A DNA stretch of 63,156 bases, counting the filler, from Folioceros fuciformis (lineage: Eukaryota): NCBI GenBank assembly GCA_049999805.1. It is 3 parts of 3 records of this genome, joined end to end, with 100 filler letters (N's around TTAATTAATTAA, not from the genome) between each part and the next. Parts side by side here need not be neighbours in the genome. Positions count along the whole stretch, not along the records: positions 27,927 to 56,550 come from JBNGIO010005748.1; 2 more parts are not named here. One strand, written 5' to 3'. Under the pieces are notes generated by a model. The model was not told the DNA's origin. It did no database searches and saw only the letters and a program-made list of their open reading frames with translations. This document shows, piece by piece, positions 20,601 through 62,962 of the stretch (position 1 is the stretch's first letter; every line of letters starts with the position of its first letter). The translations under genes were made by a program, and so were the position numbers.

Positions 20601-21256
20601 GGAACCTCAGACCGGAGGGAAGCAACCGACAGTGTTTAGAAGGGCGGCCAATTGTTTCCTTCAGCAAGGTTTGAGGCAATCACTGTTGAGAACTTGAGAA
20701 GCACGAAAATAGTATCCTCCGCTTTCCTTCGACCTTGTATAGGGTATGAATGGCATGCTCCAGCTGTCTATGCTGGAAGTCGTGTCGCAAGATTTCAATA
20801 AAATTGGCCAGAAGAATGTGCATCTGAGACATCCTGATTGAAACCAAGCATAGATGTAACGGGTTGGTTGGCAATTGACGGTAATCACAACACAGAGCGC
20901 CGACAAGGCACTTCTCAATCTGATATGCCAACAAGTTGTGGGACTCGGTACGCGCGCCCCCTTCAGCATGTCCACGCCTTTTGTCAGGCTTGCAGAGAAA
21001 ACCATGTAATGTAACTATGCTATATACAGTATATGGCTTTGTACAGTCTATTACCTGCGGCTTCTGTTGTTTTCCATCAAAAGCGGGGAAATAGTGGCTT
21101 TTCCCCCAGTTCTGCAGAACTGCTTCCAAAGTTGTACAGAGACCAATTTCGAAGCAAGCAGCGGGGCGGCGATTCTGGAATTGTGGTAATGCTCTCCGGG
21201 AATTTGAAGTATGTCCGACTCGCTCCGTGAGCCGCGAGGGGAAAGGGCGTGAAGGG

Positions 21257-23785
21257 ATGGACTCCAAGTGTGGGGCAGAAGGTGTGCAAGTAGAGGGAGC
21301 TTTTATAGGAGTTGGCTGCAACAGAATAGTTGGAGCCGCAGCATGGGGTCCTTCAGGACTCGTTGCGTTTGGGGCTCATCATGCTGTTGCTATTCTTGAC
21401 CCCGAGCAAGCCAAAATTTTGCTGAGTCTCCCTGGTCACCATGACCTAGTGAACTGCGTCGAGTGGCTTCCTCGTTATTCTTGTCAGCTAGAGGAGCATG
21501 GTGAACTGTTGTTGCTATCTGGAAGCGCCGATGGTGCCATAATCGTGTGGGGGTACAAGCCAGTGGAAAGGAAGTGGAGGCGAGCTTGTGAGCTGGGAAA
21601 AGCTCATGTCAAAGCAGTCACTTGTATCTCTGGTCTTGTTTTGTCTCCTTCCACTGCTTTGATAGCCTCCAGCTCATCGGATGGAGCTGTACGAGTTTGG
21701 TCGCTGGTACGGACTCCAGCATGCTCTGTGTCCTTGCTTCAGAGTATTACAGTTGGCTCCAGGTCAATCGTGGCTGTGGCACTTGCGGCTCTCGTTGGTA
21801 GCCAAGGAAATTTTATCTTGGCGTTGGGAGGCCTGGACAGCCAGATATATGTATACATTGGTAAAGCAACTGGAGGTTTCTCATTAGCTTGCGAGCTGAA
21901 GGGACATCAGGATTGGATTCGTGGCCTTGATTTTTCCTTCCCCTTTGCAGAGGAAGAGGGAGCTACTCTTTATCTGGCCAGTTGCGCACAGGACAAGTAT
22001 ATCAGAATCTGGAAGATTGTCCCTAGGGATAGGTCGAGGGAGGTGCAATCCACAAGAGTCAGTCTGAAAACCTATATTGATGGACCGGTTTTCAGAGTCG
22101 ATGAAGGAACGTACCAAACGTCTGTAGAGTCTGTTCTCGCAGGTCACGAGGACTGGGTTTACTCTGTCCGCTGGAAACCCCCTGTTCAAGGTGATAGAGG
22201 AAGCGTGAGCCAGTCCATGTGTGTGTTGTCGGCCTCCATGGATCGGACCATGATGATATGGACACCCGTGTCCAAATCTGGAATATGGTTGAATGACGTA
22301 AATGTCGGGGAGCTTGAGCATACAGCTCTAGGATTCTATTCCGGTTTATGGAGTCCACATGGAGACGCAATTCTGGCTCATGGGTACGGTGGTTCTTTAC
22401 ATCTTTGGAAAGACATCAGCTTACGAGGAGACTGGCAACCTCAAATAGTGTCCTCTGGACATTTTGCTCCAGTTGTCGATCTGGCTTGGGCCACCACTGA
22501 TGAGTTTTTGCTTTCTGTAAGCCATGACCAAACTGCTAGGGCATTTGCCTGGTGGAATAGAAGCACATCAAAAGGCATATCAACTTTATGTGCATGGCAT
22601 GAGATTGCTAGGCCGCAGATTCATGGTCATGACTTGAATTGTCTAGCTGTAATCAAAGGGAAGGGCAATCACAGATATGTGAGTGGGGCTGAGGAGAAGG
22701 TTGCCAGGGTTTTCGAGGCTCCTTCAGCATTCTTGGATACTCTTTCTGGCGTTTCAGGGTTAGAAACCTCTACAGAATATATTAGGAGGACTGATGTGTT
22801 GGCGCTCGGGGCAAACATGTCTGCCTTGGGTTTGTCTCAAAAGCCAATATATGTTCAAGGCCAGGGTAGACATGGTGGGGACAACGTGGCAGATAGCCTA
22901 GATACCATGGGGCCATTACCTCAGGCAGAACCATGTGTCGTCACACAGCCACCCCTTGAGGAACATTTAGTGCAAAACACACTGTGGCCAGAATCCCATA
23001 AGCTTTATGGACATGGAAATGAGCTGTTTTCTATGTCCTGCAATTATGCAGGAAGCCTTCTAGCTACAGCTTGCAAGGCATCAAGTGCAGATTTTGCTGA
23101 TATTTGGCTGTGGCAAACTGGTTCGTGGAGGCCCACTGGGCGCCTTCATTCTCATACACTAACCGTCACTCAATTGGAATTCTCGCATGATGACAGATTT
23201 CTGCTTGCAGTATCTAGAGACCGTCATCTTTCTGTTTTCCAACTCAACACATCATCTGAACCGCTTGACGAAGCTCCTTACAGATTGATATTCCGGAAGG
23301 AAGCCCATAAGCGAATAATCTGGGCTTGTGCTTGGAGTCATTGTGACAAGATGTTTGCAACTGGTTCACGAGATAAGTCAGTCAAGGTTTGGGCTGTTGA
23401 GCAAGCTCAGGAAGTACAAGTGAAATTGGTCACCAGTCTGCCACTGTTCGGGAGTAGTGTCACCAGTCTTGCCTGGTGCCCAAGTTTGCCCGATAAACAA
23501 TACCAAGTACTCGCCGTTGGTTTGGAAAGCGGACTGTTAGAATTATGGAAAGGAGCCTTTGAAAGTTCTGCTGGTGCATCACCGCAAAGTCTCGGGAAGC
23601 TTGAGATGAGGTGTTTGATCAGGATTGATGAACACTTGTGTCATGTAGCAAGTGTCCATCGTTTGAGCTGGAGCAGTAAGATCGAGGAAGACACTGACGA
23701 CGAGGGCAGGAAAGCAGCGTTATTGAAATTGGCATCGTGCGGAGCCGATTTTTCTGTTAGGATTCTATACGTAGGCTTGCACTAG
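21257..23785 (+). CDS. ELP2: Elongator complex protein 2 (WD40), single uninterrupted ORF
   Basis: FIGVGCNR..., LKGHQDWIRGLDF, LAGHEDWVYSVRW, WHEIARPQIHGHDLNC, GAEEKVARVF, GANMSALGLSQK, LWPESHKLYGHGNE, EAHKRIIW: diagnostic ELP2 motifs. Confidence 0.97.
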   Translation: MDSKCGAEGVQVEGAFIGVGCNRIVGAAAWGPSGLVAFGAHHAVAILDPEQAKILLSLPGHHDLVNCVEWLPRYSCQLEEHGELLLLSGSADGAIIVWGYKPVERKWRRACELGKAHVKAVTCISGLVLSPSTALIASSSSDGAVRVWSLVRTPACSVSLLQSITVGSRSIVAVALAALVGSQGNFILALGGLDSQIYVYIGKATGGFSLACELKGHQDWIRGLDFSFPFAEEEGATLYLASCAQDKYIRIWKIVPRDRSREVQSTRVSLKTYIDGPVFRVDEGTYQTSVESVLAGHEDWVYSVRWKPPVQGDRGSVSQSMCVLSASMDRTMMIWTPVSKSGIWLNDVNVGELEHTALGFYSGLWSPHGDAILAHGYGGSLHLWKDISLRGDWQPQIVSSGHFAPVVDLAWATTDEFLLSVSHDQTARAFAWWNRSTSKGISTLCAWHEIARPQIHGHDLNCLAVIKGKGNHRYVSGAEEKVARVFEAPSAFLDTLSGVSGLETSTEYIRRTDVLALGANMSALGLSQKPIYVQGQGRHGGDNVADSLDTMGPLPQAEPCVVTQPPLEEHLVQNTLWPESHKLYGHGNELFSMSCNYAGSLLATACKASSADFADIWLWQTGSWRPTGRLHSHTLTVTQLEFSHDDRFLLAVSRDRHLSVFQLNTSSEPLDEAPYRLIFRKEAHKRIIWACAWSHCDKMFATGSRDKSVKVWAVEQAQEVQVKLVTSLPLFGSSVTSLAWCPSLPDKQYQVLAVGLESGLLELWKGAFESSAGASPQSLGKLEMRCLIRIDEHLCHVASVHRLSWSSKIEEDTDDEGRKAALLKLASCGADFSVRILYVGLH

Positions 23786-43607: not shown

Positions 43608-46600
43608 TGCGGTGTCTCTTACTTCATGGCTTTAACTCGTCCCCACACATTTGATTTAGGTACTTTATCTATTCTAGTGCGGCTTAGTTGGAGACTTTCT
43701 TGGTTGTAATATCTTTGAGCTTTATCATATGAGTATCTATCATATGAGTAAGAGGTGAATCATAAGAATGGTTGTCTTTGGATGTTGAAGTAAGAATAGG
43801 GTCCCTTGCAAAAGTTGTAGGGGGTGAGGATGTAGGAGATTGTAGGAGAAAGGGTAGAAGGGGAGTTTATTAGTGGGTTATGAGTGTGTGATGACTCACA
43901 CACACCTTTAAACATCCTAGATGCCACACCTTCACAAACAAGTGTTTTAGTTAAATCCACAGAGGTTGGGTCATGTGAGTTAGACATTCCTACCATCTTT
44001 GGATTGTCTAACATGAACGAATACAATACTTCCTAGTAAGCTCACTCATAAGCATATACTCTCATGCCATGATTCTTGGTCTCTTGCTTATACTACTTCT
44101 TGAGGGAGTCCATTGTGTTGCGACATGTAAGACCTATTGAAACAAATCCTATGTTAAAGGGTGCAATTTTGAGTGCAATAGTGTCCTATTGATGGCAAGA
44201 AAAGGTTTCCTTTGTGAAGATGGTTAACATACACCTCCTCATACGTCGAGATTAGAGCATGAGTGCTCTCTCATGTCCGTGTAGCCACATTTTGGTTTCC
44301 AAGCTTAGGAATTGTTGAAACTTGTAACCTAGATGCGCTTAGACAAGTACCACTTGTATTGCCAATATGTTGTATTGAAACAGTAAATCCATGAGGAATA
44401 AATTGAGCAACTTTACGAAGACTATCAAGCACAAGCAACAAAGTGGATTGGTGGTCACATGCACCCAACATATATCCCAAGTGCACAAATAAATACATAT
44501 GGTAGATGTTATGGAAAAGCCGTGCTAACTAAAACAGAGCTTTGTCCCTTAAAAGTAGGGTTGCTCTCTACTTTTAATGGACAAAGCTCCATTTCCTTTT
44601 AAAAGGTTCTTCTGTGAATGGTGTGAAAGATGGAGGTGTCCTAATATGTCCTAAGAAGCACTTGAGGCCTCCAATTGTTCAAACTCCATTTTTGGAAGAT
44701 GGGTTCTTTTGAGGTGTCCTTTGTGGAGATAGTTTATTTGACTGGTATCTTAAAGTGTGGACTACCTAAACAAAATAAATGATATGTTGAGAGCTTTTTA
44801 CACTACTATAGTACAAAATTTGCACGTCTTTCTCTGTATCTTCATTGCCGTAGAGGAGCATAAAGGCAACATGTCTCACCTTAGCCCATTTTCAATCAAG
44901 GGATCAATGTTGGCAGGTGCAAACATGATAGCCTACCTTCACATCCACTCTATGATTCTACTTGCACCAAAACTCCCCATCTATAGCATATGAAAGGCAA
45001 ACAATCTTATTGACATAACCTTGGAAATAGATGTCAACCAGTTAGCACCCAGGGCACTTCTGCCCTTTGGCATGATGTTGTTGTTTAGTCAGACTTAGTT
45101 TTCATGTAAACAAGTATGTAATGCACAAAAGCAATGGGAAACTTTGTAGCATATTAATCCAAGATGCATGCATAAAGGAGGAGAGTGTCAATCCAAGAGT
45201 ACCCTTTGTCATTGTTCTCCAAAATTATATGCAATTGCAAGCACCTATCCATGGAAAATCTTAAAATCCATAAAAAAATGTAAGAGGAAGAGATAGCATG
45301 GAGGAGGAAGGTGGGTGAGTAGGAGGTGCGAGGGAAGACGTCACCTTCTTGTAAGGGTTGCGAGTCTTAGGAGTTCAGACCTTTTGATTTTGTCAAAGGG
45401 TTTGTGGATATGACATTGGAAGAAGACTAGGTTTATATATGAGACCTCTCATAAATCAGGGACCTTATTGTTTGGTATTCTTTCGTCCAGCTTTGCGCAA
45501 TACCCAAGTTATCTCACTTGGGACTATTGCTCCTTTTTGACTTTGGACTCTTACTTGTTCTCCAGCTTTGCTAGCAAGTTTGAAAATTCTTGATAGTTGG
45601 ATTATATAGGTGTTTAGGGACATTATAAGTCTCTTGGTACCTTCGAATGTGCCATTGGTTATTTGGTCTAGAAGCGAGATCTTTGCAAGTTGCCTTCGGG
45701 AGCACTAGCCTACTAGCCATGGAGGCCTCGGCTCCAATGACTATCGTTGGTAGCTATTCCTTATCAACCCTAATTCTAGCGTCTCAATTTTTATTATAGG
45801 AGGCTTCTATCTTGGGAGTCAAGGAGGGGGTATTGCCTATTCAAGTGCCTACGAGGCAAACCTTTTTCTACATATGAGGCATAACTTTTTTGACAACTCC
45901 TCTCCGTTGCTTTGCCGAGGCCGCTGGCCAAGTGTGGCGCATAAAACCCCCCCTCGTGCTGTCTCCCTGGTGTCCCGGCAGTGCCGTAATCGAAATATTT
46001 CTTTGTTTGTTTTTATTTTTTTTCAAAAACGTATCAGACTTAATGCCACTTTCCATGTGGCTGAAACAAAACCAAAACTATGGCAGTCCACTTTTGGAGG
46101 GAGGAAAGATTCCTCAATTAGTTTTTGACCCTCCACAACCCTCCTTTCCGCTTTTCGCGCCAACATTTGACGCTTTTCGCGCCAACATTTGACGCCCTTG
46201 GGGACTGTAGGCAGTACCTTTCACCGGTATATCAACATTTGACACCCTTAGGGACTATGGGCAGTATCTTTCACCAATACATCCCGTCACTTTGCAGAGT
46301 AGCCACATTGTTTTTTCTCCATTTGTAAAGATTGTCCCAGTGTCATGTAGCATACTAGAGGTATAGAATCAACAATGGCATTCAATCAGCCCTTGGTTCT
46401 CGATTCCCAGCAACCTCCTCTTCAATCACACCAATTTTTTTCCTTCTATGAGGCTTACAGTACAATCGAGTTGCTATGCATCCGAAAAACCACACATTGT
46501 AGTGAGGAGGGTGTCTTCCTTATCTGCCACTCTCATCTCATACCTTATCTGCCACTCTCATCTCATACGGCAAGAAGAATAGGCAAGAACAATAGAAATG

Positions 46601-47067
46601 TGGACTCTCATCTCATACGGGAAGAAGAATAGAAATGTGGACATTTCGTAGGCACGAAATGTGACCACAACGGCCATCATAGCTGCGAGAATAGGGTGAT
46701 CTTGAGGATCAACAACACATAACTATTTCTGATGTGCACATAACTATTTCTGATGTGCTCGCGGTGGCAAAGTTCTGAGGTGCACCGCGGGAGCAGCGTT
46801 TGGTCACGGTGAGTGCCCTTAAAATCCGGCACTTTTTCATGGTGTTATGGAACATGGAAAGTGGATTTGGGTACACATGGAAAGCGACCCTTAGTCTCAA
46901 GCTGTAACTCGCGTGCTCACATCTGTTCCCTGTAAGCAATTGGAACGCTGGTGGAGCGCCGCAAGACCTTGCTCAGTTATCAGCTGCGTGACTGAGAAGG
47001 TTTGGGAACTGGTTAGATTGCTGGCCTTATATGTGGCATCCATGCCCTGCCAAGGTGCTTGGAGGCG

Positions 47068-50000
47068 ATGAGAATTAGTGGGAACGTCGGCGGACTCGTT
47101 CCTCGACAAGGATGGCACAGGTGTTTCTCGAATCAGGAGTGTCCACCGAAGCGGTGGAAGCCTGGACGGCGCCGCGGTGAGTGTCGGCTTTTCTCAGCTG
47201 CTCGATCAAGTTGCGGCTGCGGGCGTAAAGCAAGTTTGAAGTTGTAGATCCTTGCCTGCAGAAGACAGGCCTATAGCAGCACGGAAGGCATTGTGGAGAA
47301 AGTTCCTGGAGGATCCTTCCCAGTGGTGGGACCACAGGTGCTGCAAGGTACAAGTCTGCTGCCCTCTTGTAGACCAGCCCTGTGAGTTTCTCACGACGTT
47401 GCCTTACTCAGCAAGACTTTGAGGCCTGGTTAGGCGCTGCTTGTTCCACGGTGTGCAGTTGACCATAAGTGATCACCACAGAGGAACGTCAAGTACCCGG
47501 ACTTCGTGCACAGCACAACAAGGGAGGGCTTGTGGATCGACGGCTGGTCCAACCCTGCTTGGGTCAAATCTAAGGTTGCAGCGTTGCGGGAAGCACGAGC
47601 TGGCGGTGCTACTAGAGCATCCTTCCGCGGTGGCTTAGCTCCTGCTGCTTCTTGCGGGGGTGACAGCGCTGTAAGGTGCTTCCGTTTTAACCTGCTCAGT
47701 GTGACAAGGCTGGCTACTGGTTTAGGTTTGAAGTGGTTGGAGGGTTTTGCTGAAAACCTGTTTGTTATGCTTGGTGCTTGCAGAGTAGCCACTGAAGGGG
47801 CTTGGAGTCCTGAAGTCTGGAGCAAGCTCTGTGACAATGGTCAGCTCGAAGAGGCATTTGGAGTGCTTGAACTCATGGAGCAGCAAGGAGTATCGGTACC
47901 TTCAGACATGTTTCAGCGCCTCCTCTCAGAATGCATTGGGAAGAAGAACTTTGGCCTCGGCAGACGTTTACATGCTCTTGCTGTTAGAAGTGGGCAAGAC
48001 TCTAAAACCGTTGTCGGGAATCACATAATTCGAATGTATGTTGCTCAGGGGAGCCTTTTGGAAGCAAGCCAGGTGTTTAGCCGGTTGCCTGCACCGGACG
48101 AGTTCGGGTGGGTGTCTATCATTTCAGCACATGTTCAGCAGGGACAAACTCAGAAGGCTGTTCAGTTCTATATGCAGATGCGAGAATCAAGTGTGAAACC
48201 TAACAGCTATGTGTACGTGGCTGCCCTCAAAGCATGCACCAGCGCCGATGATTTCACCTCTGGCACGGTGGTGCATTCTGATGTGAGGAATAGTGGATTT
48301 GAGTACAACCCGTTTGTTGGCAATGCACTTGTCAACATGTACAGCAAATTTGGGAAGTTGGACGAAGCTCGCAGCCTTTTTGATAGGTTGCCCACGAAGA
48401 ATGTGGTGACCTGGACATCCATGATTTTGGGATATGCACAGCGTGGACTAGGTCAGGAGGGTCTCCGACTTTACGTTAGAATGCAAGAGGAAGGTGTGAT
48501 TCCAAACAAGCTTACATACTTAAGCGCTTTGAAAGCCTGTGGAAGCGTAGGCGCCATACAGGAGGGCGAAAAGATCCATGGTCGGGTTTTGAAAGAGGGT
48601 CTTGAGGCAGATGTCTTTATTGGGAATTCTCTCCTGGCTATGTATGCTGACTGCGGAAATCTAGATATGGCACGTAGGGTCTTCGAGACGTTGCCAACTA
48701 GAAATATTGTGACTTGGACAACAATCATTGGAGGATATGTCCAGCGAGGTCTGGGTGTTGAAGCCCTCGAGCTCTACAGGAGAATGCAACATGACGGGAT
48801 AACACCAGATAGTATCACACTCGGCAGCATTTTAAGAGCATGTGGCAGTGCTGGTGCTATAGTAGAAGGGAAGAGAGTCCATGCTCAAATTGTCCACCGG
48901 GGGCTTGATAGAGATCTGGTCGTCGTCACCACACTCATTACAATGTACATTGATTGTGGATGCCTTGGGGAGGCAGAGAAAGTATTCGAGGGCCTGGCAG
49001 CCAAGAATGTTGTAGCATGGACTGCGATGATTGCAGGGTACCTGCGGCACGGGTCTGGTCAGGAAGCCCTTAAACTATTTCACAGGATGGAAGAAGAGGG
49101 TGTTAGACCAGACACAATGACACTTGTTACCACGTTGAGAGTATGTGGTAGCATCGGAGCCTTACAGGAGGGCAAGAGATTACACGCCCTCGTTTTGGAA
49201 AGGGGGCTTCATACTGATCTACATATCGGGAGTTCACTTATGAACATGTATACCGAATGTGGGAGCTTGGAAGATGCCCTCTTTGTATTTGATAGATTGC
49301 CTAACCGGAATGTGGTCACATGGACTGCGATGATCAATTGCTATGGCCAGCATAACAAGGGGAGACAGGCTGTGCAGTGTTTCGAAGAGATGCTCCGACA
49401 GGGAGTTGAGCCTGACGCCACAACCTACGTCTGTCTGCTTACTGCCTGCAGCCATGTTGCCCTAGTGAAAGAGGGTCAGCATTATTTTCAATTGATGGAA
49501 ACTGAGCATGGTATCATTCCATCAATCGATCACTATAACTGCATGGTTGACCTGTTAGGACGGTCAGGTTGCTTGGATGAAGCAGAAAAGCTTTTGCAAA
49601 CCATGCCAATGGGACCCGACGGTGTGGGATGGATGGCTCTGCTAACTGCATGCCAGATATACAGGCGTGTGGACGTAGGAAAGCGATGTTTTGATCGTCT
49701 CATCCAACTGAATATCCAAACGGGTGCTGCTTATGTGCTGATGTCAAGTATTTATTCTGATGCTGGCCTGTCAGCGGAAAGCGATCATATAGAGCGGTTG
49801 CGAAGATCCTCCGGCGCTAGGAAGCAGCCCGCAACAGCCCTGATCGAAGTGAATGACCAGGTGCACAAGTTTATTGTGGGTGACAGCAGCGCTTCATGGA
49901 GGGAGCCGAGTAGCACGAGCTCAGCAGACCTGTCCCACTGGCCTGAGCTTTACCATAAGTTAAGGAGTTTGAGTGTGCGCATGAAGGAGGAGGGCTATGT

Positions 50001-50274
50001 GCCTAACACCTATGCCGTGCGAAAGCCCCTTTCCAACAGGGAGAACGAAGATGCCCTCTGCGGCCATGCCGAAAAACTAGCCTTAGCTTTTGGCCTTCTC
50101 AACACGCCGGAAGGCACTAGGTTGTTAGTGATTCAGGACTTAAGAATGTGCAGTGACTGCCATAGTGGTAGCAAGGTAATCTCGAAGATGACAGGGCGGG
50201 ATGTTATCGTGCGAGATGCGCACCGTGTCCATCACTTCAAGGCCGGGTCATGTTCCTGTGGGGACTTTCCTTAG
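47068..50274 (+). CDS. PLS-class PPR-E-DYW:KP RNA-editing factor with N-terminal OSB-type PDF motif (exons 47068-47176, 47262-47347, 47482-50274; possible in-frame intron 47676-47783)
   Basis: GT-AG splicing gives in-frame MRISG..HRCFS..RRR/EDRPIAARKALWRKFLEDPSQWWDHRCCK/RNVKYPDFVHSTTREGLWIDGWSNPAWV. Then P-L-S triplets, P2-L2-S2, E1/E2, RKQPATALIEV, CGHAEKLALAFGL, MCSDCH and CSCGDFP*. Confidence 0.92.
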
Positions 50275-50565
50275 TTGGCTGACATTTCGAGGGTGGATTA
50301 CATTGTCACTACGCTATGCAGCATCACTTGGTATGGGGTCAGGTGAAGCTTTGGCCTTCGCACTGCACGGTGGCCGTGGGCCGTGGGCCGTGCACCTAAA
50401 AAACAGGCGGATATGAAACTTACATTTCTATCTCCCATCGGTTGACGAGTTAGCCGAAATTTTTGTCCCCAACTGCTCTTTACGTCGGGCTCCCACGTGG
50501 CGAATCTTCACATTAAACGCGGTGACTAAATTATTCTGTCCTACGGCTCACCTAATCATAGAGAA

Positions 50566-53500
50566 ATGAACCCATTCTGCCGGTGTTTTCACACGGTTGA
50601 ATCTATTGAACTGTTGGGGTGGCCAGTAAAATGGGCCAGCGTGATGGCCGTGTGCTTAGCGCTATGTTGTAGGACAGAAGGCCTGGTTAATTTGTGTTTG
50701 GGAAGGAAGGCGTGCCTGATGATGATTGCTTTTATCTTGGTTGTTAGCTGGACGGTTGACGCTCTGTCCATGGATGGCAAGGAGCTGCTCAGATTCAAAA
50801 GCCAGGTACGGGATGAAGCTGGAAGACTGAGCAACTGGGAGAAGAGCGATGACAATCCATGCTGGTGGGCCGGAGTGACCTGCACACCAGCACGGTCCAT
50901 GGACTCTAACCCCAGTGGTGACGTGCAGTTTATCAATCTGTTGAGCAGCTACAACGGGCCTACTCTTATAGGCACTTTGCAAGCTACTCTCCTCATTCTC
51001 GCTTCTCTCGAGAGCATACGCGGCTTGGACTTGGCCCGCAACAATTTTTCCGGTCCTATGCCTGCGAACTTCGGAGTTATGATGAAGAATCTGTCTTACC
51101 TTCATCTTTCTAGCAACCCACTGACCGGGAAAAAACCCAGCGGCATCGGCGTGCTCTCGAACCTGCAGGCATTGGCGTTGGCATCCGGCGAGCTCACAGG
51201 TACGATTCCTGATCTGCAGGCCCTGTCAGAGCTTCGAGGCTTGGAGCTGTCAAACAACCGCCTTACCGGCAATATTCCCAAGCTTGAAGGTCTGAGAAAT
51301 TTGATGGAGCTCAAACTCTCCAATAACGGGCTTACCGGCACTATTCCTGATTGGGACAGCCTTGTGGGCATGCAACACCTCTCTCTGTCTCACAACAATC
51401 TTGGAGGCAGGATCCCCGACTGCACGGGATTGAAGTCTCTGGCGTCGTTAGATCTGTCCCGAAACCAGTTAGTGGGAGAGATTCCTCAAGGGATATGGAG
51501 CAATCGTTCTGAGATGATAGATTTGTCGGCAAATCGGCTTACCTGTGGCATTCCTGGCGAGCTGCCACAGCCCAGTCTGTGCATGACTACGTTGAACCTG
51601 AGCCACAATTTGCTTGCAGGACGCATCCCCGAGGTGGGGAAATATGGGCTTGGAGGGCAAATGAGCCTTCTCACCACCCTGGATCTGAGCAGTAACCAAA
51701 TAGACGGCCCCATTCCCATGTGGCTCAACAACAGGTCCATGCCTATGCTGAGGCAGCTTTGCCTGCATCAAAACAATTTGAGTGGAGAGGTGTCGACGCA
51801 ACAGTTTGCTGGAGACATCACGGAGCTGCGGTTGGCCCACAACAAACTCACAGGGGACATAACAATGATCGTTTCCAGCAACTTCACAGATATCACTGTC
51901 CTTGATGTGGGCTACAATGCACGACCTGGCAGCAGCGTCTTTGGAGAGAGTGGGGCAGACGAAGGCACCCTGCGTTTCGTCTTCCAGAAGTATGGTAGCA
52001 CCTTGCAGGAGCTAAAGTTAGGGGCCACCAATCTTCCAGGAGCCCTTTTCCAGCGGAGAGATGTTGCCGCTTTTGCATACGCTGGATCTGAGTAACAACA
52101 AGCTGGAAGGGGATACTCCCGGCGCTTACAACATGACCTACATGCCCTTACTGCGTTGGTTGGATCTGTCCAACAATTAGCTGCAGGGCCAAGTTCCTGC
52201 CGGCTTGACAAAGCTGAAGAAGCTTACGTGCCTCAACCTCTCCAGCAACAATTTTTCTGACCCCCTGCCGCCGTTGCCAGAAGCACTTCAGGAATCCAGG
52301 ACCGTGTGGTGTCCCTTCGCCACCTTGTGATGGCTCTTCCCCAGGTATATCTCAGAAACTGCTGAATCGTGACTGCCTGTGAAGTATGATAGTCTCTGTA
52401 ATTCGCAAGCTTTCGTCCCGACGAATCTGACACCGGTGTAGCTTGCAGAGAGTGCGTCATGGCAGGGTTCCAGCACGAGAAGAGAGAAAGGGATGACATG
52501 GATAATGATATTTGACATGGTCGATGTGTCCATACTCGTATACTTGGGAACTTGCTGTCAAGTCGGGTGGCGCTGGAAAATCTACAGCCGCAGACATCTC
52601 CAAGACGCGGAGTTGATCGCGGCAATGCAGAGCAAGGATAAGGCCACCTTGATGTCGCTCCGGAACCTACAAAGGGCCACATCGAACTTTTCACAGGACT
52701 GCCAGATCGGGCAGGGCGCATTCGGCACAGTGTACGCAGGCAGGCTGAGTGACGGCACGACCGTGGCTGTGAAGAAATGCTAGCGTGCGGAGAGTGATAG
52801 GGAGAAGGACCAATTCCTGAACGAGGTCCTCATCCTCTCTAAGTTGAATCACCGCAACCTGGTGAGGCTACTGGGATGCAGCCTGGAGAAGAAGGCCGCG
52901 GTGCTGGTGTTTGAGTACGTCTCCAACGGGACGCTTCGGGAGCATCTCCGAGGGGAGAGAGGAGTCAGGCTCACGTGGCCGCAGAGGCTACAGGTGGCCC
53001 TCCAGACAGCAGACGCCCTAGCGTATCTGCACTCTGCTGCCTACCCTCTCATCTTCCACCGGGATGTGAAGTCCTCCAACATTTTTCTGGATGACAACCT
53101 GAATGCCAAGGTAGCGGACTTCGCATCTCCAAGCTGGTTCCTCTAGAGGCCACACATGTATCCACCATCGCTGTGCTGGGCACTTCGGGATACATCGACC
53201 CGCAGTATTACCAAACCTTCCATTTCACTTGTAAAAGCGATGTCTACAGCTTTGGGGTAGTGCTGCTGGAACTTCTGTCTGCGAAAGCGCCGGTGGACAT
53301 TCGCAGGGGTGCTGAGGAGGCCAGCCTGGTGAACATGGCAATTCCACTCATTGTGAACAGAGAGATACCCCTCATTTTGGACCCTGCGCTTTCCTCAACA
53401 TACCAGTCTACTTCTGGGAAGGAGTCCATCTCCAGCATGGGTAAGCTTGCTGTCCACTGGTTAAAGTCCTCTCCCAAGGACAGACCGACTATGAAAGAGG

Positions 53501-56550: not shown

Positions 56551-56650
56551 NNNNNNNNNNNNNNNNNNNNNNNNNNNNNNNNNNNNNNNNNNNNTTAATT
56601 AATTAANNNNNNNNNNNNNNNNNNNNNNNNNNNNNNNNNNNNNNNNNNNN
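56551..56650. other. Artificial assembly spacer (N44-TTAATTAATTAA-N44)
   Basis: Same 100-bp structure as 27827-27926. Confidence 0.95.
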
Positions 56651-58702
56651 GAGGACGAAGTACCTGTAGCTCTTGAACAACCTAAACCTGCTGTCCTGCG
56701 TAGAGGGACATGCCATCGTACAGCTTCACCTTTGGAGTGGGCGGAACCTCCCTTGGCATATAAGTCCTTCTTGGTACAAGATGATGGTGGTCCTCTTGAC
56801 ATGGGAGATCCTCAATCATATCAAGAGGCCATAAATGGGAAGGACGCGCAAAAGTGGACTGAGGCAATTAATTCTGAATATCAATCTCTCATAGATAATA
56901 AAACATGGGTGCTTGAGGATTTGCCCCCTGGAAGGAAGGGAGTAACATGTAAGTGGGTCTTTAAAACTAAGCTTGACGCCAACGGAGCTATCGCACGATA
57001 CAAGGTGAGGCTGGTTGCAAGAGGGTACACTCAAGTGGAGGGGCTCGACTACACAGAAACATTCTCACCTGTAGTTAGAGCAACTTCCATCCGTGCTCTC
57101 CTTGCTATAGCAGCCCAACATGATTATCTTCTTCAACATATGGATGTAAAAACTGCATTCCTCAATGGAAACCTTGAAGAAACCATCTACATGAAGCAAC
57201 CAGAAGGGTACGTTGATCCACAGCATCCCAACAAGGTATGTAGACTTGTCAAAACAATTTATGGGCTTAAGCAATCACCACGAGAGTGGTACAAGAGAAT
57301 AGACACATATCTTAGGAGTTGTGGGTTTGTCCAAAGTAATGCTGATAGTAATGTCTACAGACTACATGATAGAGATGGGCTGGTCTACTTAGCACTTTAT
57401 GTAGATGATGCAGTCCTCATAGCTAGTAGCGCCACAGCCATGTCAAAAGTTAAAGCCATTCTGACTTCAGAGTTCTCCATGACTGACCTTGGTCAGCTTA
57501 CCTTCTTCCTTGGCATTAGAATACATCAGAATCTAGCTAGGCACAATATTTTTATACATCAATCACAATTCGTCCAACAAGTTCTTGCCAGGTTCCGTCT
57601 TCAAAATGCCAAGCCAGCACCAACGCCGATGGCAACTGGGGAGAAGCTAACAACAGATCAGTCACCAAAGACTGAGGAGGAACGACAACAAATGGCAACT
57701 ATACCATATAGACCTGCAGTGGGAGTGCTCATTTACTTTAGAAACTGGACCGGGCCTGAACTATCACACTCTGTAGGAGTTACATCACAGTTCCTTACAA
57801 ATTATGGAAGCGCACACTGGCATGCAGTTCAAAGGATCTTTAGATACCTTGGAGGCACACAAAATCGAGGACTTCTGTACAGCAAGAGACCAGAGAATTT
57901 GTTGCTCACTTGCTTTTGTGATGCAGACTGGGCTGCTGATACAGACAGCAGGAAATCAATCTCGGCCCATTGCTTGATGCTCGGCAAGGATGAGTTTCAT
58001 TCTACCACCATTTCCTGGCATAGTAAGAAGCAGCAAGTAGTGGCCTTATCCTCCACAGAAGCGGAGTACATTGCCACCACCACAGCTGCACAAGAGATTA
58101 TACATGGCCGAGAGCTGCTAGCATCCTTAGGAGAGCCTCAAAATCCACCCACTCTACTGCTCAGTGATAATCAATCCTCCATTGCCCTTGCTCAGAATCC
58201 AATTATGCACGCTAGGACAAAACACATAGAAATTAAACATCATTTCATCAGGCAAGTAGTTTCTGAGGGACAAGCCAATCTACAATATGTCCCAACAGAG
58301 GCAAACATAGCAGATATCCTTACTAAAGCCCTAGCATGTGATAAGCACGAAAGATTCTGTAAGGCAATGGGAATGGTTGAAAATCCAGATGCATAAGAAG
58401 AGTTTCCTACTTAGAATGCACAACTACAAGATGCTACTGAGGTAGAAGGAATGTCATCGAGCTTGGTATTGCTGAAGTGGCATCACGGAGGTGCAGTGCC
58501 GCAAGGGTCTGCATCAACACACAGCGAATCAGTTTTTTTTGCAACAGAGGACTCCACCGGCAGTGGGAGCTAATTCTCGTCAAAGGCATCAGTTCTGATT
58601 ATCAGCTTGTTCCTCATTCGTGAACATGCTGCAGGCAACATGCTACAAAGATGGTCATTTTACAACAGCAACATCAAGTATAAATGCAGGCTAAGTGGGA
58701 GT
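56651..58702 (+). mobile_element. Copia reverse transcriptase/RNase H (open ORF to 58396) with downstream PPT-like AAGTGGGAG
   Basis: CKWVFKTK..RYKVRLVARGYTQ, HMDVKTAFLNG, YGLKQSPREW, LYVDD, CDADWA, SSTEAEY, HARTKHIEIKHHFIR. Confidence 0.93.
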
Positions 58703-60139: not shown

Positions 60140-62962
60140 AACCTGAATTGGTTCACAGTGACGTTTGTGGACCTATGCCCACTATATCGTTAGGCGGTGC
60201 ATCCTATTTTGTCACTTTCATTGATGATTTCTCACACAAGGTGTGGGTTTATCCTTTGAGGAAAAAGGATGATGTTTTGACAATGTTTCAGAAATTTGTT
60301 ACCCTTGTGGAGAATCAGTTTGGCCTCTGACTGAAGTGTCTAAGGACAGACAATGGGGGAGAGTACGTTTCGAAGGCTTTCCAGTCATTCTGTGATTCCA
60401 AGGGAATCAAGAGAGAATTGACTGCCCCGTATACTCCTCCCTAGAATGGTGTGGCTGAACAGATGAACTGGACCATCCAGGAGAGGATGCATAGTTTGTT
60501 GTCAAACTCTGGATTGCCTAACGGATTTTGGGCAGAAGCAGTGGCTACTGCAGTGCATCTTATTAATAAATCTCCTAATAGGGCTGTGGATGAGCAGGGT
60601 CCAGAGGAGATGTGGTCTGGAAAGAAGCCGTCATACAAGCATCTACGAGTGTTTGGCTGCGAGGCATACTACCATGTTCCGAAGGAGTTTCGGGACAAGT
60701 TGGCTCCAAAGTCAAGAAAATGTATTTTTCTCGGCTATGGTGAATCTAGTGAGATGGGATACCGTTTATGGGATCCAGAGGCCAAGAGGGTGGTCCGCAG
60801 CAATGACGTGTTCTTCAATGAGACCAAAATGCACAAGAAGCCTACCCCAACTGTGAAGGTGCGACGGGTGGTCTTCCAAGAAGATGGCCTTGACCGTCCC
60901 GTACAGGTTGAACGTCGTGATGTGCAAGAACCCACTCCTCCACTTGTAGAAGAAGAGAGAATGCAACTAGCTCCGGTCGAGGCACCTGTGCTTTGTAGGT
61001 CAAGAAGGATTTCATGTCCTCCTGACAAGTATGTTGCATCTCTTGATTATGTCATTCTGATGGATTGTGGGGAGCCCTCTTGTTATCAAGAGGGCATGTC
61101 AATGACTAACAAGGACAAGTGGGAGAAGGCAATGCAGTTGCAGATGGATTCGCTCCATAAGAACCAAACTTGGGAGTTGGTTTGGTTGCCTAGGGGCAAG
61201 AAGGCGTTGCCATGCAAATGAGTGTATAAGATGAAGGACATACCCCATTATGGTAAACCCAAGTACAAAGCATGATTGGTTGCTAAGGGTTTTAAGCAAT
61301 AGCAAGGTCTTGACTTTGATGAGATTTTCTCACCAGTTGTCAAAATGACCACTTTGCAATGTGTCCTTGCTCTGGTTTCGAGGAGCGACATGGAACTTGT
61401 CCAGATGGATGTGAAGTCGGCATTTCTGCATGGTGATCTCCAGGAAGAGGTATACATACAGTAACCAGAGGGTTTCATTGAGAAGGGCAAAGAGAATGTA
61501 GAGTGCAGGTTAAAGAAGAGCCTTTATGGTTTGAAGCAGGCACCTAGGGAGTGGTATTACAAGTTCCACTCATTTATGCTTTCTCAAGGCTACAAACGTT
61601 GCGAGGAGGATCATTGCCTCTATACGAAGCAAGCTAAGGATGGAAGCTTGCTCATTCTGGTCCTCTATATGGATGATATGCTAATTGCTGGGACTAGCAG
61701 TGATGAGATTTCAGCGTTGAAGTCAAAGTTGAATGCTCGCTTTGACATGATAGACTTGGGAGAGGCAAGCCATATTCTTGGCATGCGTATTCGTCGAGAT
61801 AGAGAGAAGCATTTTCTTTACTTGTCTCAGACTGAATACATTAACAAGGTGCTTCAACGTTTCAACATGGAGAAGGGGAAGGTATTGAGTACTCCGTTGC
61901 CTCCATATGTGAAACTATCGAGCAAAGATTGCCCAAGCTCTGCGGAGGACAAAGCTGATATGGAGAAGGTTCCATACTCATCAGCTATAGGGAGTTTGAT
62001 GTATGCGATGATTGCTACACGTCCTGACATTGCTTTTGTAGTGGGAGTGGTTAGCAAGTTTATGTCAAACCCTGGTAGGAAGCATTGGGAGGCAGTGAAA
62101 GGAGTTATGAGGTACTTAAATGGTACAAAAGCTTTGTGCTTATGTTTTGGTAGTGAAGATGCATCTGTAGTGGGATATACGGATGCTGATTATGTAGGGG
62201 ATATGGACAAAAGGAGGTCTACATCAAGTTATGTCTTCATGTGCATTGGAGGGGCAGTCTCATGGCGATCTCGTTTGCAATCGTGCATAACGGTATCTAC
62301 CACAGAGGCTGAGTATGTTGCAGTGACTGAGGCGTGCAAGAAAGCCATGTGGCTTGCTCGTTTAGTGAGAGATTTGGGGATCAAGGTTGGTTGAGCTGCC
62401 AGTGTTGCATTGTGATAGCCAAAGTGCTATCCAATTGGCGAAAAATCTAGTGTTTCATGCGAAGACCAAACATGTGGAAGTGAAGTATCACTTCATTCGA
62501 GAGGTGTTGGAAGACAAGAGGGTACAACTTGTCAAAGTTCACACCAGTTAGAACCCTACAGATGTTCTTACCAAGGGGCTCTCTACAGAGCAGTTTGCAC
62601 AAGTTCGGACACTCATGGGCATGAGGTAGACCACTCTCCTATGAAGGTAAATTGGCCTTTAAGTGGGAGGTTGTAGGGTTATTAAAGCCCAATGTGCTTA
62701 GACTATTGTGTTTAGTCTAAGATTAGTGTCTAGTTAAGTATCATTTGTTTAGATTAGCTTAATCTAATATGTAGGAAGCTTCTTACGCAGCTTCCTATGC
62801 GCTTCTTGTGAAGCTTCCTTGGGAGCTCTTCTAGAGGGTATAAATACCCCCTTGAGCTCCCTTGCTATTGAGACTCTGTGTGAGAGTGTGACCTCTCTTT
62901 CTCCTATCCTCCTTGCCTCCTCCTCTCCTCCTTCACCATATGGCTCCTCTAGCGATCCTTCA
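60140..62962 (+). mobile_element. Degenerate Copia element 3' part: integrase, RT, RNase H, PPT and 3' LTR (62672-62962)
   Basis: [67 protein letters not shown] immediately before the TG..CA LTR; many premature stops. Confidence 0.93.

Follow-up and report, generated by a model that had tools for sequence, protein, structure and literature searches.

An OSB-type PDF motif encoded ahead of a PLS-class PPR-DYW protein in Folioceros fuciformis, and a dominant transcript with a stop codon inside the motif

Accounts of PPR editing factors usually name a transit peptide, a tract of RNA-reading repeats and a deaminase, and those of the PDF motif present it as peculiar to the OSB proteins, the guards of organellar DNA. 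Among the former, the PPR-DYW:KP proteins of hornworts, lycophytes and ferns, together with the designer proteins KP1-KP7, are those that we take to be candidate and designer U-to-C editors. In the parts consulted of the publications on OSB proteins, the PDF motif of OSB1 was reported as sufficient for ssDNA binding, Arabidopsis OSB1 and OSB2 as binding ssDNA through this motif and localising to organelles, and the OSB proteins as favouring ssDNA over RNA (PMC6963530, PMC4166229). For the DYW:KP domain, the sections consulted give a conserved Lys-Pro in place of the PG box (PMC11332814), the presence of HAE instead of HSE as a criterion, and DRH and GRP as the named end variants in hornworts (PMC9478123).

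The locus described here lies in a window of 63,156 nucleotides, i.e., the whole stretch of Folioceros fuciformis DNA that was analysed. Its transcription was followed through two sequencing runs, X1 and X2, which were taken as RNA solely from their contigs skipping three GT..AG introns, as no record labels them as such. X1 provided one 3354-nt contig with 0 mismatches to the locus and thus comes from the same organism, and X2 one 3335-nt contig with 266 differences over the last exon of roughly 2.7 kb, its source being a relative about 10% diverged; two more runs, X3 and X4, contained only short paralogous PPR pieces. The resulting features are as follows:

46878..47067, plus strand: 5' leader of the transcript (first piece of the X1 RNA contig, record 1, 46878-47175)
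ATG 47031 to TAG 47076-78, plus strand: first uORF of the 5' leader, overlapping the main ATG (frames read from the sequence)
ATG 47042 to TGA 47069-71, plus strand: second uORF of the 5' leader, overlapping the main ATG (frames read from the sequence)
47068..47176, plus strand: coding part of exon 1, ATG at 47068, 36 codons and 1 further nt (junction seen in the X1 and X2 RNA contigs)
47177..47261, plus strand: intron 1, 85 nt, GT..AG, acceptor AG at 47260-61
47262..47347, plus strand: exon 2, first PDF half ..LW..F..DP..WWD.R..K, ending in phase 0
47348..47433, plus strand: intron 2 as spliced in both RNA contigs, 86 nt, GT..AG
47434..47481, plus strand: exon 3 extension present in the RNA contigs, 48 nt, 16 in-frame codons with TGA at 47470-47472
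47482..47675, plus strand: remainder of exon 3, second PDF half RN..YPDF.H..T..LW....NP.WV (about 47482-47565), then an Ala/Gly/Arg-rich linker
47676..47783, plus strand: intron 3, 108 nt, GT..AG, in frame (RNA contig pieces 47432-47673 and 47782-50510)
47784..49659, plus strand: PLS-type PPR tract, 10-11 Pfam PPR stretches (PPR_2 1.5e-90, PPR 1.3e-78)
49660..49848, plus strand: E motif (PF20431, residues 727-789 of window:47482-50271, 30.3 bits, cut-off 27.3)
49993..50274, plus strand: DYW deaminase domain, KP type, and stop codon 50272-74 (PF14432, 114 bits)
50134..50136, plus strand: Gln codon CAG at the position of the DYW active-site Lys (alignment with fetched DYW proteins)
50275..50510, plus strand: 3' UTR, to the end of the RNA contig

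The protein encoded downstream has the PLS PPR-E-DYW layout (PPR_2 at 1.5e-90, E_motif at 30.3 bits, DYW_deaminase at 114 bits), and exon 1, whose donor is GTGAGT, encodes a basic, Arg-rich leader that reads like a presequence and might direct the product to an organelle. The two uORFs that overlap the start codon are an observation that sits uneasily with the reading favoured below. From the DNA, an earlier note had proposed a GT-AG exon structure joining two upstream exons in frame to a PPR part read as an uninterrupted ORF of 922 aa. At the DNA level this structure holds, since the AG at 47480-81 leads in frame into the long PPR ORF, which measures 933 aa from stop to stop. The PPR part is nevertheless interrupted: intron 3 (47676-47783) lies inside it and is spliced out in both RNA contigs, with a boundary ambiguous by 2-3 nt, the genomic frame staying open through it and losing 36 codons on splicing. 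With the acceptor 47481|47482 used and intron 3 removed, the predicted protein has 959 aa.

The peptide spliced through this acceptor reached 69.2 bits (E 1.6e-20) against an OSB-only PDF profile composed of 170 motif segments from 74 SSB-tagged proteins, with the exon 2 and exon 3 halves alone scoring 29.7 and 39.3 bits, respectively, and the best of the 1593 other six-frame ORFs of the window 6.3 bits. By an alignment of 25 motif sequences, the peptide keeps all 9 invariant residues and 6 of the 7 near-invariant ones, the exception being a Lys replaced by Ser. Moreover, the half-motifs WWDHRCCK, at the end of exon 2, and RNVKYPDF, from 47482, each occur only once when the 63-kb window is searched for their patterns in all six frames, and the two halves are 158 nt apart on the same strand. 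The locus peptide is a genuine OSB-type PDF motif, as the earlier note had claimed, on the strength of its 69.2 bits against the OSB-only profile and its full set of nine invariant residues. A chance PDF resemblance in non-coding DNA, for which the shortness of the motif is the one argument, is at odds with scores of 69-94 bits, where the best decoy reaches 6 bits, and with the presence of all invariant residues; its probability is negligible, and the OSB-only profile scores against the 1593 other ORFs refute it.

Like the OSB proteins, the window protein is nuclear-encoded and combines a basic N-terminal leader with a PDF motif of roughly 50 aa, which scores 69-76 bits and has all nine invariant residues. 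OSB proteins differ in carrying an SSB/OB-fold domain, followed on its C-terminal side by one to several motifs, whereas the window protein has a single N-terminal motif preceding a PPR tract, and this motif is closer to the PPR-linked subgroup. No match to SSB (PF00436) was detected in the ORF by a Pfam scan at E<=10. Since the SSB/OB-fold is absent and PPR repeats follow the motif, the window protein is not an OSB and only shares the motif; and since OSB proteins are reported to prefer ssDNA, RNA binding by the window motif is not implied.

The motif is elusive in common searches. No Pfam model matches the N-terminus of the window protein, and a word-indexed protein search yielded 560 candidates, none scoring, for the N-terminal 110 residues, and 2 candidates without a match for the 42-aa second half-motif; the motif family was recovered only via full-length protein search plus a regular expression. 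Two models built on relatives predict a mini-domain composed of a helix, short strands and a helix, with pLDDT of 91-98. A sequence search of the PDB gave a single match at E 2.1, Foldseek with the mini-domain model no match at E<=0.001 (best 3.9), and VIA-align against 48,161 chains a best Z of 3.0, while a larger model matched PPR structures only, via its PPR helices. A mini-domain with a high-confidence prediction and no solved structural relative makes a structure together with a binding assay informative for OSB biology.

These data also bear on what the mini-domain would do. That the fusion is made but its PDF part works as a protein-interaction, capping or import-related module rather than as a nucleic-acid binder seems to us quite improbable. 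It would agree with the fact that no PDB fold match points to a nucleic-acid-binding fold, with the model of protein P0227, where the mini-domain is predicted to run straight into the first PPR helices with high confidence throughout, and with ssDNA binding being documented, in the parts consulted, for OSB proteins only (PMC6963530, PMC4166229). However, the OSB-invariant residues (four Trp, Phe, Arg, Lys and Asp) are all kept in the PPR-linked copies, as a shared ligand would lead one to expect. Residues of these kinds, aromatic and basic, are typical of single-strand binders, which also argues against a non-binding module.

Fusions similar to this one are present in other plants. A phmmer search with the 58-aa motif of the Diphasiastrum protein P0073 retrieved 657 of 1.84 billion proteins at E<=0.001, including a 'protein OSB2, chloroplastic-like' from Magnolia and an 'organellar single-stranded DNA binding protein 3' from Euphorbia; Pfam SSB was found at E<=0.01 in 8 of 10 sampled matches, five of them above the Pfam cut-off. 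Among the best 150 representatives there were 11 PPR proteins with an N-terminal PDF motif, the named sources being Diphasiastrum complanatum (several genes, including KAJ7558666.1, KAJ7568880.1, KAJ7517631.1, KAJ7570437.1 and O6H91_07G101600), five Sphagnum species (e.g., S. fallax KAH8950713.1 and S. compactum CAM6033764.1) and Adiantum (A. capillus-veneris KAI5061374.1). Eight more are probable N-terminal fragments, one of them from the liverwort Calypogeia. All these proteins are annotated merely as hypothetical, unnamed or 'PPR protein', which bears out the expectation of the earlier note that such fusions sit unannotated in other proteomes. The earlier note knew of no functional description of this architecture, and none came to light in the literature searched.

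The window protein resembles these relatives in the order of leader, PDF motif(s) and PLS PPR tract, and in motif identity, which reaches 57% with P0190. Its N-terminus aligns with P0073 without gaps across the 47347|47482 junction (82 bits, E 3e-21 in a 120-protein set), its motif scores 93.7 bits with a PPR-linked profile vs 76.1 bits with the OSB profile, and a weakly resolved 100-row tree groups it with 22 PPR-linked and 3 OSB rows (SH-aLRT 91). Differences are found in the motif number, as some relatives have two and the window a single one, and in a PGT(V/I)Q stretch that directly follows the motif in most relatives and is missing from the window. This absence and the Ser at the near-invariant Lys are features of the motif that do not favour the reading proposed below. 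The C-terminal part differs as well: six of nine PDF-PPR proteins scanned with Pfam have the E motif and two of those six also DYW, with PG-type features (HSE, DYW end), whereas the window protein is KP-type. The fusion is thus not confined to DYW:KP proteins, the two DYW-bearing relatives having features of the PG type and the others ending in the E motif only.

Altogether, the PDF-PPR lineage includes, at the least, mosses, a lycophyte, a fern and this plant, and it represents an accessory domain on a known family, not a new kind of system. That PDF and PPR parts are joined hints at a physical connection, so far unexplored, of RNA editing with organellar DNA or with nascent transcripts, for which the Sphagnum and Diphasiastrum proteins are natural constructs for testing.

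How the fusion would be expressed from the locus is less simple. Exon 1 is joined to exon 2 in the RNA contigs, so that this part of the splicing proposed in the earlier note is confirmed, whereas the junction that it had placed at 47347|47482 is not the one in the contigs: those of X1 and X2 both join exon 2, directly followed in the DNA by GTACAA, to 47434, skipping 86 nt (47348-47433). The 47434-47481 segment, which would belong to the intron with the AG at 47480-81 as acceptor, as had been proposed, reads ALLVPRCAVDHK, then TGA (47470-72), then SPQ, and then the second motif half. The dominant transcript thus carries an in-frame TGA (47470-47472) inside the PDF motif. This stop is probably common to the X2 relative, judging by the lack of any X2 difference at 47463-47564 among those listed, which begin about 32 nt from the ends of the contig pieces. 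That the stop is present in the one transcript assembled for each species is a further point at odds with the reading put forward below.

Because of this TGA the dominant mRNA cannot encode the fusion, and its product would be a peptide of 77 aa, or else a PPR protein of 799 aa that starts, without the leader, at the first downstream Met (MEQQGV). A PDF motif and a PLS PPR tract come in one polypeptide from the window frame only via the acceptor 47481|47482, in place of the 47433|47434 used in the contigs, and the fusion protein would consequently need this acceptor as a minor isoform. The 47347|47482 junction was not seen among the listed joints of the assembled contigs; as Logan contigs follow the dominant path alone and drop minor splice forms, and the joints listed are only a part, its absence is not established. 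In this line, annotated Diphasiastrum isoforms differ at the same point of the motif, with insertions of 7 and 4 aa exactly before the (R/K)(N/S)xxxPDF point, the 7-residue one in an already degenerate motif copy, and another isoform beginning at the first residue after it.

Two ways of bypassing the stop on the dominant mRNA were considered. Editing of the TGA from U to C in the nuclear transcript was dropped, since the RNA contig has T there, with 0 mismatches. Translational readthrough, giving a motif with a 16-residue insertion, would find some basis in the in-frame nature of the 48-nt insertion and in the apparent coding constraint on the exons at both sides. We regard it as highly improbable: no recognised readthrough context was seen on reading the sequence, no aligned motif has a 16-residue insertion at that point (the longest in Diphasiastrum is 7 residues, in the degenerate copy), and no RNA structure around the site and both acceptors rises above shuffled controls (z=0.49).

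Comparison of the two species indicates which parts may be translated. Exon 1 has 6 of its 7 listed X2 differences at codon position 3 (P=0.007) and a 3-nt in-frame length difference at its end, the 47565-47624 region has 7 of 10 (P=0.02), and both sides of the TGA pooled have 13 of 17 (P=3e-4), with a weaker third-position bias in the PPR tract (8 of 15, P=0.09). Exon 2 has 1 difference in 85 nt, and the motif exons 1 in 187 nt vs about 10% elsewhere (P=7e-8). As for X2 indels, coding exon 4 (2.49 kb) has none, all four (6 letters) being located in about 230 nt of the 3' UTR. Our reading of the few X2 sites listed suggests that selection still acts on the reading frame over its whole length.

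Such a pattern has to be set against the possibility, which we hold to be rather unlikely, that the PDF-PPR ancestry is real and the fusion has been lost here, the leader and first half-motif having been severed by the upstream acceptor with its stop codon, leaving a relic leader before a gene bound to become a pseudogene or a leaderless PPR-DYW protein made from a downstream Met. The dominant transcript with its in-frame TGA in two species, whose longest ORF of 799 aa starts at MEQQGV, would be expected under such a loss, and so would the uORFs, the near-invariant motif Lys changed to Ser and the active-site Lys changed to Gln. Moreover, P0026 and P0043, two other PPR proteins from the databases, have called ORFs that start inside a degenerate second half-motif. 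Nonetheless, the third-position bias at 13 of 17 sites, the in-frame 3-nt indel of exon 1 and the near-identity of the motif exons are unexpected if this region is untranslated, the 930-codon frame is intact, with an exon 4 free of indels at about 10% divergence, and a leaderless organellar PPR protein would have no obvious import signal.

The reading that we favour, with slightly better than even confidence taken as a whole, is that of a live PDF-PPR gene whose fusion protein comes from a minor splice form, with a PDF motif that adds single-strand affinity and a DYW domain that is unlikely to edit from U to C. What was observed is the identity of the motif, the architecture and how it is conserved, the splice junctions, the stop codon and the Lys-to-Gln change; the productive isoform, the organelle targeting, the binding of nucleic acids and the direction of editing are inferences. 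The locus would be a live gene in the nucleus of a non-seed land plant and belong to an old, unremarked lineage of PLS-class PPR proteins whose single OSB-type PDF mini-domain lies after a targeting-like leader and ahead of the PPR repeats, the motif being split by a phase-0 intron at a position that appears conserved. The intact 959-aa fusion would be made only via the acceptor 47481|47482, and the dominant mRNA, with an acceptor 48 nt upstream, would represent an unproductive or gating splice form, the productive one being minor. To judge from OSB1, the mini-domain most likely gives the protein an affinity for single-stranded nucleic acids that does not depend on their sequence, and it would act N-terminal to the PPR tract, which corresponds to the 5' side of the RNA footprint. 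A much broader proposal, to which we give little credence, is that PDF-PPR proteins form an ancient class of land-plant organellar editing or processing factors, where the PDF motif couples the PPR tract to the nucleoid, the non-template strand or the nascent RNA for co-transcriptional work, under a splicing gate at the conserved motif intron; the member described here would then have mainly an 'off' transcript and be a natural K88Q-like C-to-U editor. The tether to nucleoids or ssDNA that the earlier note had suggested is likewise a conjecture.

Regarding the deaminase, the window protein shares with PPR-DYW:KP proteins the PLS-type PPR tract, the E motif, an active-site HAE rather than HSE, Pro-Ala where Pro-Gly would stand, the Zn-ligand motifs and the lack of a terminal DYW. 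In the alignment its signature reads HAE, CSDCH and CSC, and its box KQPATA, with no PG and with P-A as in five HAE-class relatives (KKPAKA etc.). It differs from them by the N-terminal PDF motif, by K-Q-P rather than K-P at the box and by Gln at the Lys of K-N-L-R-x-C, a position where 51 of the 52 DYW proteins fetched, and all 5 of the HAE class, have Lys. The earlier classification as DYW:KP agrees with HAE and the DFP end; the box lacks PG, but its K and P are not adjacent, and Gln stands at the Lys88 position; this last assignment follows our own residue count, i.e., K91 of the PG type minus 3 missing xHP residues, and not a published figure. In the sections consulted of the work with designer proteins, U-to-C editing was reported to depend on Lys88 of KP6 as an essential residue, and K88Q to turn designer proteins to C-to-U (PMC11845758). 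The role as a U-to-C editor attributed to the window protein is thus doubtful, because Gln replaces the Lys reported as essential for it, and the domain, if active, is more likely a C-to-U editor or a mere RNA binder. The Lys-to-Gln change could also be a sign of decay rather than of altered activity. This natural change at a direction-deciding residue and the stop-in-motif splice form of two species are both testable. As further differences from the KP proteins, the domain has an insertion where xHP is usually missing, and its C-terminus, GDFP, lacks the Asp-Tyr-Trp triplet and gives a DFP end, vs the DRH and GRP described for hornworts in the part consulted (PMC9478123).

A single gene on the + strand, at 46.9-50.5 kb of the window, holds the two halves of a Trp-rich motif adjoining on the same strand, and each half-motif pattern occurs exactly once in the six-frame translation of the whole 63-kb window. 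The second half (RNVKYPDF..) starts three codons into a 933-codon frame and is followed by the PPR repeats; Pfam finds in this frame 10-11 PPR stretches, an E motif and a DYW deaminase domain, and no Pfam model matches the N-terminus of the gene product. The parts of the gene are the following:

ATG 47068 to GTGAGT donor at 47177, + strand: leader, 36 codons, basic
After AG at 47260-61, + strand: exon 2, 86 nt, ending at GTACAA, first half of the Trp-rich motif (..WWDHRCCK)
47473 to 50274, + strand: long frame, 933 codons, stop-to-stop
47676-47783: intron 3, 108 nt, GT..AG, in frame, seen in contigs of sequencing runs X1 and X2
47031-47078: two upstream ORFs (15 and 9 codons), overlapping the main start codon

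Neither a solved structure nor a Pfam model was found for the PDF motif, the ssDNA-binding motif of plant OSB proteins, and word-based protein searches with motif fragments returned nothing. A full-length search returned 120 PPR relatives, and a regular expression run over them located a contiguous motif copy in P0073, a PPR protein of Diphasiastrum complanatum. With the downstream acceptor proposed in the earlier note (AG at 47480-81), the N-terminus of the window protein aligns with P0073 without gaps across the junction, at 49% identity over 65 columns (82 bits, E 3e-21 within the 120-protein set). Searched exhaustively with phmmer, the 58-aa P0073 motif matched 657 proteins at E<=0.001, 188 of them at E<=1e-10; most are of 250-560 aa with 2-13 motif copies toward the C-terminus. 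A sample of ten included an NCBI 'protein OSB2, chloroplastic-like' and an 'organellar single-stranded DNA binding protein 3', and eight of the ten had a Pfam SSB match at E<=0.01, which in five passed the curated cut-off. Jackhmmer tagging marked 74 of 139 non-PPR representatives as SSB-bearing, and a profile built from their 170 motif segments only was searched against the six-frame ORFs of the window plus the joined protein. The joined protein scored 69.2 bits, the halves alone 39.3 and 29.7 bits, and the best of 1593 other window ORFs 6.3 bits, so that the OSB PDF identity originally read from the sequence is borne out. Of the positions conserved in a 25-sequence alignment, the window motif keeps all nine invariant residues and six of the seven near-invariant ones, the exception being one Lys replaced by Ser. 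Very long PDF arrays also appeared: a Kingdonia uniflora protein of 1160 aa has 13 stretches and a metagenome protein of 908 aa has 11 (P0121, P0122), far above the 1-5 copies discussed in the available text of OSB papers.

Sampled words of the gene region were present at 89% in run X1, from the same organism, and at 5% in run X2, from a relative about 10% diverged. A 3354-nt X1 contig matches the window with no mismatch, and a 3335-nt X2 contig shows 266 differences across the last exon; three GT..AG introns are missing from both contigs, which are therefore cDNA-derived. Intron 1 (47177-47261) is as proposed in the earlier note. Intron 2, which had been placed at 47348-47481, runs in both contigs from 47348 to 47433 (86 nt), so exon 3 begins at 47434 and reads 12 codons, a TGA (47470-72) and three more codons before the second half-motif. 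Intron 3 had been overlooked inside a seemingly uninterrupted frame; translated from the genomic sequence, it wrongly inserts 36 hydrophobic residues after the linker, ahead of the first PPR repeat. The observed mRNA thus encodes 77 residues from ATG 47068 before the stop, and its long ORF, of 799 aa, starts at a Met within the first PPR-like repeat; use of the downstream acceptor would give an ORF of 959 aa. Logan contigs retain the dominant path only, which makes the observed form major in both species and the alternative, if real, minor. The major transcript of the locus cannot encode the fusion.

The selection counts use X2 differences listed in the contig comparison only. In exon 1, six of seven fall at codon position 3, and in the linker after the motif seven of ten (pooled 13/17, P=3e-4 under equal use of positions). 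At the end of exon 1, 10 letters stand against 7, an in-frame change, and indels number none in 2.49 kb of exon 4 and four in the 3' UTR. Exon 2 shows one difference in 85 nt and 47463-47564 none listed, against ~10% elsewhere (P=7e-8); differences are listed from ~32 nt in from piece ends, which puts the first 29 nt of the 48-nt extension outside the view, and the TGA is inferred to be common to the relative. If the stop-bearing form predates the species split, coding constraint on both sides of the stop would suggest, from few sites, that a productive splice form is made. Annotated Diphasiastrum isoforms from two genes differ by insertions of 7 and 4 aa placed right at the (R/K)(N/S)xxxPDF point, on its N-terminal side, and the first residue of another isoform is the first residue past it; the simplest reading would be an intron conserved at the position of intron 2, with alternative splice-site use. 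The two candidate acceptors of the window fit this picture: the downstream one restores canonical motif spacing, and the upstream one inserts 16 codons including a stop.

The earlier note had guessed that similar fusions may sit unannotated in fern or hornwort proteomes, and fusions of this kind do occur in other proteomes. Among the best 150 representatives, 11 match the window PPR tract (BLASTP E<=1e-5; nine below 1e-30) with the motif N-terminal to it. Pfam on nine of these found PPR repeats in all, the E motif in six and, in two of the six, also a DYW domain. The sources comprise Diphasiastrum complanatum, with several such genes, Adiantum capillus-veneris and Sphagnum fallax, S. jensenii, S. 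tenellum, S. troendelagicum and S. compactum. Eight further short proteins, one from the liverwort Calypogeia fissa, resemble PDF-PPR N-terminal fragments. PDF-PPR proteins are thus already in public databases, unnamed, their labels being all hypothetical, unnamed or plain PPR protein. The window motif scores 93.7 bits against a PPR-linked profile and 76.1 against an OSB profile. A tree built from 100 motif segments (58 columns), with poor resolution, places it among 22 PPR-linked and three OSB rows (SH-aLRT 91), and the PPR label needs six changes vs 23 in shuffles, which is compatible with one or few origins without proving them. As judged from these sequences, the architecture appears old and recurrent. 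In a Sphagnum cluster (P0199), NCBI records give 790 aa with the motif and JGI records 692 aa without it, so annotation pipelines disagree about including the motif exons in the gene. Two PPR proteins called on Logan contigs (P0026, P0043) have their start within the second half, itself degenerate, of a PDF-like motif; either a stop removes the first half, as it does in the main transcript of the window, or the motif is decaying.

Both DYW-bearing PDF-PPR relatives show PG-type features (HSE, DYW end), so the fusion also occurs apart from U-to-C-type domains. Aligned with 17 relatives, the window DYW domain groups with five sequences having K-K-P-A, HAE, a deletion at the PG-type xHP position and non-DYW ends, the DYW:KP features in the available text of PMC9478123 and PMC11332814. 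It carries, however, a Gln (CAG, 50134-36) at the K position of K-N-L-R-x-C, where 51 of the 52 DYW proteins fetched, and 5/5 of the HAE class, have Lys. By our own residue count (PG-type K91 minus three missing residues), this position would be Lys88 of designer KP6, described in the available text of PMC11845758 as essential for U-to-C editing, with K88Q giving close to 100% C-to-U. The label of U-to-C editor is therefore doubtful. The fusion is of real interest to the organelle RNA-editing field, with two complications at this locus: a major transcript that does not encode it and a deaminase without its lysine.

AlphaFold2 models of two natural relatives, with a 25-sequence alignment as input, predict for the motif (pLDDT 91-98) a helix, two or three short strands and a helix, and the longer model places the first PPR helices directly after it. 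Foldseek and VIA-align found no solved structural relative of the mini-domain, which is not proof of a new fold. PPR tracts lie on RNA with their N-terminal repeats toward the 5' end, and a PDF domain at the N-terminus would therefore be placed on the 5' side of the recognised sequence. According to the available text of reviews (PMC6963530, PMC4166229), the OSB1 PDF motif suffices to bind ssDNA, and OSB proteins favour ssDNA over dsDNA or RNA. Most likely, the domain would add single-strand affinity, on RNA or organellar ssDNA. In line with the earlier note, which knew of no functional description, a search of the PDF, OSB, PPR and DYW:KP literature, within the main texts available, found no paper describing a PDF motif on a PPR protein.

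The surroundings are ordinary plant nuclear DNA, with a WD40 gene, an LRR receptor-like gene and Copia-type reverse-transcriptase fragments. Two short tandem duplications lie at 46518-46760, just 5' of the transcript start:

46518 and 46543: tandem duplication, 26-nt unit
46716 and 46737: tandem duplication, 22-nt unit
21095-23782: WD40 frame, 896 codons open, many WD40 repeats, two beta-propeller regions
50530-52092: LRR receptor-like ORF (LRRNT_2 and LRR repeats), beginning ~250 nt past the PPR gene's stop codon
56603-58393 and 61465-62391: two Copia-type reverse-transcriptase (RVT_2) ORFs

The LRR receptor-like ORF is touched by just two X1 contigs, both of low depth, and the RVT_2 ORF at 56603-58393 has flanking N runs (56551-56650).
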